Shown here: one piece after another, positions 52,447-53,138 of the stretch
Layout: each line of letters starts with the position of its first letter
Position numbering within the stretch: position 1 is the first letter of the stretch
Source: Escherichia coli
Lineage (GTDB): Bacteria > Pseudomonadota > Gammaproteobacteria > Enterobacterales > Enterobacteriaceae
Direction: 5' to 3' (one strand)
Assembly: GCF_003334815.1 (NCBI RefSeq)
Contig: NZ_QOWO01000003.1
DNA length: 64,000 nt
Made by a program: the position numbers and the translations under genes
The notes under the pieces: model-generated
What the model was told of the DNA's origin: nothing
The model's database searches: none
The model's input: the letters and a program-made list of their open reading frames with translations, nothing else

Positions 52447-53020
52447 AATAGAAACTCATTCGAAAAGGGAATGATGCAATGATAATTGCCACAACCTATT
52501 TTTACCATCTATAGATGGGTTTATTTACATATTATTGGTGAATGCAAGACGTTATTTTTACCAGCCATAAACTTCTTGATTACATAGTATTACGAAAGGA
52601 TTTTACTGAGAACCAGAAGTAATATTCCTTACCATCAAAATTCATCATCTTTGCCAAAGAAAAATGTTCAGAAAATAATCCATGGAAAATTGTCCGGAGC
52701 ACTTACTATTTTAATGGATTGTTAGTCTTTGCATGAGCAAGCGAACTGATACATTTCTCTTTGTTCTCATTCAGAAAATCTCATCAGTCGCCGTTCAGAC
52801 CGGTGTTGTGCTTTATGGATGCGTTACGCTCCTGATGACGTCATTTGACGTTCAACAGCATCACGGGGCCGCACGACATTTCACGTCAGTTAGTGCTATA
52901 GCTCAGGAACAAATTTTCCCGAATTGGGATATGCCCGCAAATTGCTGGTGATGTGGGGAGAATCTGGTTGAGTTCGGTAGAATTGATTTGGAGGCAGAAC
53001 GCTTAAATCGTGGCGTCCTG

Positions 53021-53053
53021 AAACGAAAAACGGACCTCCGTGGAGGTCCGTTT
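53021..53053 (-). terminator. intrinsic terminator of pheU
   Basis: Seen directly: hairpin cggacctcc-gtgg-aggtccg with T-rich tract downstream on the minus strand (tttttcgttt). Confidence 0.8.
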
Positions 53054-53062
53054 ATATGAATT

Positions 53063-53138
53063 TGGTGCCCGGACTCGGAATCGAACCAAGGACACGGGGA
53101 TTTTCAATCCCCTGCTCTACCGACTGAGCTATCCGGGC
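53063..53138 (-). tRNA. pheU: tRNA-Phe (anticodon GAA)
   Basis: Reverse complement reads GCCCGGATAGCTCAGTCGGTAGAGCAGGGGATTGAAAATCCCCGTGTCCTTGGTTCGATTCCGAGTCCGGGCACCA: 76 nt, cloverleaf, GAA anticodon, encoded CCA. Confidence 0.95.

Follow-up and report, generated by a model that had tools for sequence, protein, structure and literature searches.

A predicted attachment core, the remains of an older P4-type integrase and a probable cadC control region at the pheU-cadC locus of Escherichia coli

Introduction

The phenylalanine tRNA gene pheU is a textbook hotspot for genomic islands, and the yjdC-cadC interval in which it lies is recognised as the pheU hotspot for pathogenicity islands and the LEE (PMC7686366, bioRxiv 10.1101/549998, PMC3408504, PMC7545054). 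The 23-nt core at which such islands are inserted is likewise known, having been published as a 23-bp direct repeat for GI-pheV (PMC11537424). These facts raise a simple question about a chromosome in which pheU is followed by no island: what is the DNA that separates the tRNA gene from cadC? The locus considered here lies in a 64-kb stretch of Escherichia coli DNA, the whole of which was analysed and is referred to as the window. The original prediction, made from the sequence of this window, offered two answers, an unoccupied attachment site or the scar of an excised or decayed element. The analysis presented here indicates that the tract is very probably composed of three layers, namely an attachment core, the wreck of an older P4-type integrase and an AT-rich control region for cadC.

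Results

Layout and composition of the tract

The order of genes in the window is that of E. coli K-12: cadA, cadB, cadC, the tract, pheU, dicD (yjdC), dsbD, cutA and dcuA. The tRNA-Phe(GAA) gene is the sole tRNA that ARAGORN identifies in the 64-kb window, and a search with Rfam at a permissive threshold returned nothing besides tRNA. The coordinates of the original prediction were confirmed, in that the 3' end of pheU at 53063 faces a tract of 616 bp (52447..53062) that extends up to cadC and holds no intact gene; MG1655 lists only the pseudogene yjdQ there, and the tract is 100% identical to that of strain DH1. The features identified in and around the tract, with the evidence for each, are as follows; EC15 is an island-bearing strain that served as the reference for an occupied site.

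53063..53138, minus strand: pheU, tRNA-Phe with anticodon GAA (ARAGORN; Rfam tRNA, 68.3 bits; b4134 in MG1655)
53063..53085, minus strand: attachment core of 23 nt, TTCGATTCCGAGTCCGGGCACCA (match break-points, far junction of the EC15 island, published repeat)
53018..53053, minus strand: intrinsic terminator of pheU (terminator scan, inverted repeat, RNA fold)
52900..53062, minus strand: spacer homologous to the one between pheU and int in present-day pheU islands (blastn against EC15)
52867..52899, minus strand: integrase codons 1-11, with the start codon changed from ATG to ATA (tblastn and blastn)
52706..52865, minus strand: C-terminal remnant of the integrase, residues ~359-420 and stop, equivalent to yjdQ (b4654) (tblastn, blastn, PGAP, MG1655)
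52651..52705, minus strand: weakly conserved stretch 3' of the integrase stop, probably the last DNA of the element (blastn, identity)
52447..52650, minus strand: AT-rich region upstream of cadC, probably promoter and 5' leader (GC content, conservation, position)
52733..52951, plus strand: ORF of 72 aa, judged spurious (ORF list; antisense to the integrase remnant)
50908..52446, minus strand: cadC, ORF of 512 aa (ORF list)
42236..53062, no strand assigned: dcuS-to-pheU interval of 10.8 kb, without a positional counterpart in Salmonella (ends of E. coli-Salmonella homology)

The tract had been described as AT-rich, and its overall GC content of 39.6% lies below the 51.1% of the window. The description is apt for the cadC-proximal 204 bp (30.9%), whereas the integrase remnant (44.3% over 52706..52899) and the spacer (46.6% over 52900..53062) are only mildly low.

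Both ends of an integrase gene downstream of pheU

That the tract contains an integrase remnant is already known from the annotation of yjdQ (b4654), which occupies 4362191..4362353 on the minus strand of MG1655 and corresponds to 52703..52865 of the window. On the identical sequence of DH1, PGAP/RefSeq records a pseudogene at window positions 52706..52865 (minus strand) as 'tyrosine-type recombinase/integrase; frameshifted; missing N-terminus'. A literature search on yjdQ found no paper. The translated search for fragments of P4-type integrases that had been proposed as a check was performed with the intact 421-aa integrase located next to pheU in EC15, and it recovered residues 1-11 as well as the C-terminal ~62 residues. 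Residues 359-391 match at 52865..52782, and in an adjacent frame residues 397-420 follow at 52780..52709 (linked E = 2e-9); the stop codon is at 52708..52706. Residues 1-11 match directly upstream at 52899..52867, where MALTDAKIRAA of the probe is aligned to IALTDVKCRAA of the tract. All three matches are collinear and lie on the pheU strand. At the nucleotide level, the blastn alignment of the tract to the EC15 int gene jumps from int nucleotide ~32 to nucleotide ~1067, an internal deletion of ~1,035 nt (codons ~12-358) whose junction falls at ~52866..52873. The C-terminal piece is 67% identical to EC15 over 255 aligned columns, and the alignment continues beyond the int stop to about 52650.

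Taken alone, the match of the 11 N-terminal codons is weak (E = 0.15 as protein and 0.002 as DNA), and it appears convincing solely through its collinearity with the C-terminal matches and through the better-preserved orthologues described below. To judge from its sequence, the gene is dead, a pseudogene fragment and not a functional member of the P4-type integrases. It has suffered one frameshift, internal stops, small deletions and, in this genome, the change of its start codon, and the complete set of domains (Arm-DNA-bind_3, central and catalytic Phage_integrase) in one open frame is absent from it. In K-12 and Escherichia sp. E1V33 a deletion of 16 nt spans the codon of the catalytic tyrosine, which in the intact relative forms part of an AAYIH box; in E. 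whittamii and Escherichia sp. MOD1-EC7003 the aligned sequence, as read by eye from the alignment, no longer reads as an intact AAYIH box.

Given that decay has taken the remnant beyond the reach of profile methods, the claim of homology rests on comparison with close island integrases. The EC15 integrase itself has the domains Arm-DNA-bind_3, Phage_int_M and Phage_integrase, matches phrog_1 ('integrase') and, with 97% of its length aligned, is 54% identical to the Int protein of phage P4. With a stitched 60-aa translation of the remnant there were no hits in PHROGs or NCBIfam, none by tblastn against 50,697 phage records (P4 itself yielding no direct hit at E <= 1e-3) and none in a word-indexed search of 5.8 billion proteins.

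The spacer and the terminator of pheU

The start codon of the remnant is situated 163 nt downstream of the 3' end of pheU and on the same strand; the equivalent spacer in EC15 measures 197 nt. In the blastn comparison with pheU and int of EC15, the alignment has 89% identity over 245 nt including pheU, the first 76 nt from the attachment core being identical and the first 120 nt after the tRNA nearly so. This similarity suggests that the spacer at 52900..53062 is derived from an element and represents the int-proximal arm of the old one. Located within the spacer is the terminator of pheU, a hairpin at 53028..53053 with a stem of 11 bp followed by the U-rich run UUUUUCGUUUC (RNA fold of -19.4 kcal/mol, z = -4.18), which has the G+C-rich hairpin and the U run right after an RNA gene that define a Rho-independent terminator. 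The EC15 island has a terminator of identical sequence after pheU, at its proximal end. Since the terminator lies inside the segment common to that end of the island, it is read as having been supplied by an element, and the DNA with which the pheU transcript now terminates is probably element-derived.

The attachment core and its occupancy

The last 23 nt of pheU are the published 23-bp direct repeat of pheV/pheU islands. Every one of the 5,426 complete E. coli genomes matches some of the tract, and 80% or more of 52447..53138 is present in 5,218 of them. Contiguity was assessed with the query 52700..53300, which comprises the scar, pheU and the start of dicD; it replaced an earlier query, 52990..53138, which did not discriminate because the pheU-proximal end of the islands is nearly identical to the spacer of the scar. 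The uninterrupted K-12 arrangement is present in 3,738 of the 5,426 genomes (69%), and in those that are not contiguous the match mostly ends exactly at 53085, 23 nt inside pheU. The identity of the core with the published repeat, the breaks at 53085 and the 69% of contiguous genomes bear out the original view of the locus as an unoccupied attachment site, and the site in the window may be regarded as a competent-looking, currently unoccupied predicted attB.

A direct repeat of the pheU 3' end within the tract, for which a search had also been proposed, was not found. A pattern search with the pheU core, allowing <=3 mismatches, returned only the pheU copy in the 64-kb window, a repeat finder applied to 52300..53250 gave only short pairs at chance level, and a sliding comparison with cores of 18, 23 and 30 nt over the whole window reached a best score of 16/23, which is also chance level. 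Of the properties expected of an intact island, the scar thus has neither a flanking attL/attR pair, no second att repeat having been found in the window, nor a variable presence among strains.

An occupied site

The comparison with island-bearing genomes that had been suggested was answered by EC15, in which an island is inserted at the core and the scar lies at its far end. In this strain pheU is followed by the intact integrase and an island of ~130 kb, whose cargo includes cdiBA, Ag43, cbtA/cbeA and numerous IS elements; at its far end the exact 23-nt core is followed by the scar and then by cadC. The sequences that flank the island are identical over 76 nt and roughly 95% identical over about 140 nt, as against the canonical 23 bp. 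This flanking repeat far exceeds 23 bp because the new island and the scar are related, having the tRNA-proximal arm in common, and flanking repeats of such length could, on their sequence, promote the loss of the island independently of an integrase.

Age of the scar

A scan for CadC, with one genome per species, yielded 49 loci, among which a tRNA-Phe gene just upstream of cadC was found in Escherichia alone. The tract was aligned between K-12, Escherichia sp. E1V33, E. whittamii, SCPM-O-B-8794 (labelled E. coli) and Escherichia sp. MOD1-EC7003, the last of which represents an occupied site in which homology begins about 17 nt inside the core. The deletion junction between the N-terminal and C-terminal pieces is the same in K-12 and in the four other species-level representatives of Escherichia, with further indels being specific to lineages. 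The start of the gene reads ATG GCA CTG ACT GAC GCG AAA TGT CGT (MALTDAKCR) in three of the four other Escherichia sequences, the remaining one having the ATG and a different sequence downstream, and the C-terminal remnant is better preserved in MOD1-EC7003, where it is recovered as a single HSP covering residues 367-420. As the same junction is found in other Escherichia, the scar is old and the large deletion predates the split of the species. Among four Escherichia sequences the scar segments have pairwise identities of 82-86% with many gap columns, and the remnant would appear to have been decaying neutrally since the species split.

Of the tract, the representative of E. albertii retains no more than the 75 nt nearest to cadC; another element, with primase-like ORFs, lies upstream of these. 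In Salmonella enterica and Kosakonia, the homology to E. coli ends exactly at the 3' end of pheU, with dsbD-dicD-pheU conserved, and in Citrobacter enshiensis it extends 13 nt beyond the 3' end of pheU. No trace of an integrase was found within 10 kb of pheU in Salmonella enterica, Kosakonia or Citrobacter enshiensis.

The cadC-proximal region

The highest identity of the tract is found in 52447..52650, which is 89.4% identical with zero gaps among four Escherichia sequences; the adjoining stretch 52651..52705 is 82% identical among Escherichia species and contains indels. A passage of the CadC structural paper (PMC5430869) cites the binding of H-NS to the AT-rich cadBA and cadC promoters. Given that a promoter scan gave no site on the cadC strand and that a literature search found no paper with a cadC transcription start, we infer the assignment from constraint, position and AT-richness, which make it most likely that 52447..52650 comprises the promoter and 5' leader of cadC. 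The AT-rich part of the tract is thus most likely the upstream region of cadC and not island DNA. In strain 2002-3211 the match to the tract stops at 52643 through an ISEc8 insertion or deletion; considered as a natural boundary of the scar, this break is uninformative.

Discussion

The integrase homology, the architecture of the deletion, the distribution of the scar among genomes and the use of the core by islands are direct observations, and from them the history of the tract may be proposed as follows. The 23-nt core at the end of pheU would be the chromosomal attachment site for the P4-type integrases of phe-tRNA islands. Directly downstream of pheU, and on the same strand, lies the wreck of an older P4-type element, consisting of its tRNA-proximal arm (from which the pheU terminator probably derives), 11 codons of the integrase, an internal deletion of ~1 kb and the last ~62 codons, with the remainder of the old element presumably either deleted or past recognition. 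The last ~200 bp, which are AT-rich, most likely form the control region upstream of cadC. Islands that arrive later integrate at the 23-nt core, in tandem with the old scar, and push the scar to their far end.

The extent of the old element is the point at which a different reading deserves most attention. It is conceivable, although rather unlikely, that the scar marks only the proximal end of an ancient pheU island of far greater size, whose cargo was the whole of the 10.8-kb dcuS-pheU interval. In E. coli this interval (42236..53062) contains yjdI, yjdJ, ghoS, ghoT, lysU, dtpC, cadA, cadB, cadC and yjdQ', whereas the counterpart interval in Salmonella contains dms-like genes, an SdiA-regulated gene, AraC/GerE regulators and tacAT. 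The two intervals are non-homologous and their breakpoints are sharp: next to dcuS the homology ends at 42235, 61 nt upstream of that gene, and next to pheU it ends at 53063, the 3' end of the tRNA. The integrase remnant points from pheU to cadC as it does in intact islands, and only 260 bp separate its stop from cadC. A large island is also favoured by the GC content of cadC and of the dcuS-lysU stretch, which is ~42% as against 51% for the window, by the inclusion of the ghoST pair, which we take to be the toxin-antitoxin pair identified in K-12, and by the conservation of cadC-cadB-cadA-dtpC-lysU as a module in Klebsiella, Raoultella, Buttiauxella, Pseudescherichia and others. Serratia, Edwardsiella and Hafnia have a conserved cadCBA-dtpC, and in none of these genera is the cad module accompanied by tRNA-Phe, dicD or a P4-type integrase. 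On a doubtful but not negligible estimate, the scar may be all that is left of the element on which the whole dcuS-pheU interval, with the acid-resistance operon cadCBA, dtpC, the second lysyl-tRNA synthetase lysU and the toxin-antitoxin pair ghoST, reached the ancestor of Escherichia. If true, an ancient pheU island would have delivered, as cargo that became fixed, a stress system that textbooks treat as 'core' in E. coli, and the cadC promoter would lie on former island DNA.

However, several observations stand against so large an island. First, no degenerate att repeat is found near dcuS or elsewhere in the window, the best score being the chance-level 16/23 already mentioned. Second, an intact integrase beside the cad module is present at none of the 43 cadC loci that were examined. 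Third, cadB, cadA, dtpC and lysU have a near-average GC content. Furthermore, variable regions adjacent to tRNA genes can be filled by several independent events, and the integrase could have come from a later element, the cargo of which was itself deleted. The data are equally compatible with the fixed-cargo reading and with separate events at the hotspot combined with deletion of the integrase element's own cargo.

Two further readings concern the scar as such. It is highly improbable that the tract is simply a long regulatory intergenic region of cadC and pheU in which the similarity to integrases is due to chance or is an artefact of annotation. Such a reading would be in keeping with the conservation of the tract in nearly all E. 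coli and with the failure of HMM libraries and general protein searches to detect the translated remnant. Nevertheless, the protein HSPs are collinear, in the right order and on the right strand, and they are accompanied by nucleotide homology of the spacer, the start and the C-terminus to the island integrase locus; moreover, orthologous remnants are better preserved in other species (the HSP of MOD1-EC7003, and the ATG followed by the codons of MALTDAKCR), and the scar contains frequent indels, unlike the cadC-proximal part. The collinear homology and the better-preserved orthologous remnants together effectively refute it.

There is also very little probability that the tract is a footprint left at pheU, in the K-12 lineage, by the excision of a present-day island. 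Such islands are both frequent and mobile, and flanking repeats of the EC15 type would permit deletion back to exactly this arrangement, so that the site may have been occupied at some time in the past. However, excision, or recombination between repeats, restores an arrangement that existed before and creates no integrase fragment. Other Escherichia species, moreover, have a scar with the same junction, as do occupied sites, where it lies at the far end; from this it follows that the scar predates the present-day islands. The suggestion that the tract is the scar of an excised or decayed element can therefore be retained as far as decay and deletion are concerned, but not for excision, which leaves no integrase fragment.

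Finally, it is scarcely credible that the 72-aa ORF at 52733..52951 (plus strand) is a real small gene, a candidate that the original prediction had located correctly and had rightly found unconvincing and that is rejected here for want of conservation, since, although it has 72 open codons with an ATG start and a sigma-70-like match upstream (52651..52679, plus strand), the ORF is intact only in K-12 and E1V33, is either truncated or shifted in frame in E. whittamii, SCPM-O-B-8794 and MOD1-EC7003, three of the four other Escherichia, lies antisense inside a decaying pseudogene and is unannotated in MG1655 and by PGAP, with promoter matches being below chance (1 found against 1.9 expected).

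With the preferred reading of a core, an old integrase wreck and a cadC control region, a long 'empty' intergenic region is explained as a pseudogene and a promoter region, and the value of this result is mainly one of bookkeeping. The feature is real but ordinary, and overall it was already known; what is added here are the N-terminal codons, the internal-deletion architecture, the probable origin of the terminator, the age of the scar, the repeats of EC15 and the count of occupancy. Two points may have wider consequences. The scar-extended repeats of EC15 could affect the stability of the island, and they complicate the automated calling of island boundaries; and the fact that the dcuS-pheU interval is sharply replaced between the genera Escherichia and Salmonella is a useful pointer to how the cad-lysU module arrived at its place.

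Comparison with known systems

Relative to the existing annotation of yjdQ, which spans the C-terminal piece only, the feature described here also takes in the 11 N-terminal codons at 52867..52899, among them the mutated start, as well as the homologous spacer as far as pheU and the architecture of the internal deletion. The likeness to the integrase of satellite phage P4 is established via the EC15 probe, by its identity and domain architecture, and not through the scar itself. Phage P4 integrates at leuX and not at pheU.

EC15 offers a further parallel, given that its composite island contains a second C-terminal integrase fragment (L005:22444..22635) that covers residues 358-420, almost exactly the portion kept in the K-12 scar. 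This internal fragment, a case of tandem accretion, is 77% identical to the EC15 integrase, as opposed to about 58% for the scar, and it is preceded by unrelated DNA, whereas the scar is preceded by the tRNA spacer and the N-terminal codons.

Further known systems are the pheU/pheV islands with P4-type integrases (such as PAI-CFT073-pheU, the LEE of O26:H11, SHI-3 and the GI-pheV family), with which the locus has in common the attachment core and the gene order and orientation of tRNA, spacer and int. The scar differs from them in being without a functional integrase, securely assignable cargo or an attR. Furthermore, whereas these islands are specific to strains, the scar occurs in other Escherichia species and, within E. 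coli, in some 96% or more of the complete genomes.

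Variation within the tract

Within the 616-bp tract between cadC and pheU (52447..53062), the promoter scan returned a match oriented toward the antisense 72-aa ORF (52733..52951, + strand), which is itself judged spurious, and sigma-70-like sites in the region were no more numerous than expected by chance.

52651..52679, + strand, sigma-70-like match (TTGCCA, 17 nt, AATAAT; 10/12)

Insertion sequences alter the tract in some E. coli genomes, strains 44, PK8277 and 2002-3211 being those noted among the matches. Some of the genomes have an IS1 copy within it. In strain 2002-3211 an ISEc8/IS600 cluster takes the place of all sequence past window position 52643, leaving the cadC-proximal ~197 nt as the sole remaining part of the tract.

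Variation of the flanking intervals

The whole interval from dcuS to pheU (42236..53062; yjdI, yjdJ, ghoS, ghoT, lysU, dtpC and cadABC) is occupied by unrelated genes at the same place in Salmonella, and the breakpoints between the two are sharp. The cadC-lysU block is a conserved module across many other enterobacterial genera and appears portable. On the other side of pheU, the gap to dicD is 107 nt in E. coli compared with ~2.2 kb in Escherichia sp. E1V33 and E. whittamii, where the match to the window restarts 49 nt upstream of pheU. In both genomes an ORF with a signal-peptide-like N-terminus lies in the gap.

L007:7179..9194, 671-aa ORF between dicD and pheU, with an equivalent in L009

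A different arrangement is found upstream of cadC in Escherichia albertii NBRC 107761, where the match to E. coli is limited to the final 75 nt.

L024:1..4195, DNA upstream of cadC in E. albertii NBRC 107761

Neither pheU nor the decayed P4-type integrase gene of the tract (the scar; pseudogene yjdQ) was found in these 4.2 kb, which instead hold ORFs of 151 aa and 612 aa resembling a primase/helicase such as P4-like or satellite elements carry. The att core (the last 23 nt of pheU) was not found at the junction between the 75-nt match and the DNA upstream of it.

In assemblies of Arthrobacter, Myxococcus and Alkalicoccobacillus, fragments of cadC turn up on very small contigs (279-643 nt) whose stated coverage is very low. 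The fragments from Arthrobacter and Alkalicoccobacillus match E. coli cadC at 100% identity and the one from Myxococcus at 69%; all are most likely contamination. The E. coli DH1 record annotates cadB as a pseudogene and places a stop inside it (L001:1..1097), whereas in the window it is an intact 444-aa ORF (49209..50543).

Comparison with the pheU island of EC15

The island inserted at pheU in strain EC15 contains, besides its intact integrase, a second integrase fragment that is 77% identical to it.

L005:22444..22635, second integrase fragment of the EC15 island, residues 358-420 kept

The C-terminal portion kept is nearly identical in extent to that of the K-12 scar, and a breakpoint near residue 358, being seen repeatedly, may mark a preferred recombination spot in such int genes. 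Unlike the K-12 scar, the EC15 fragment has unrelated DNA on its upstream side, with a gene for a phosphoethanolamine transferase and a gene for an outer-membrane protein on the opposite strand.
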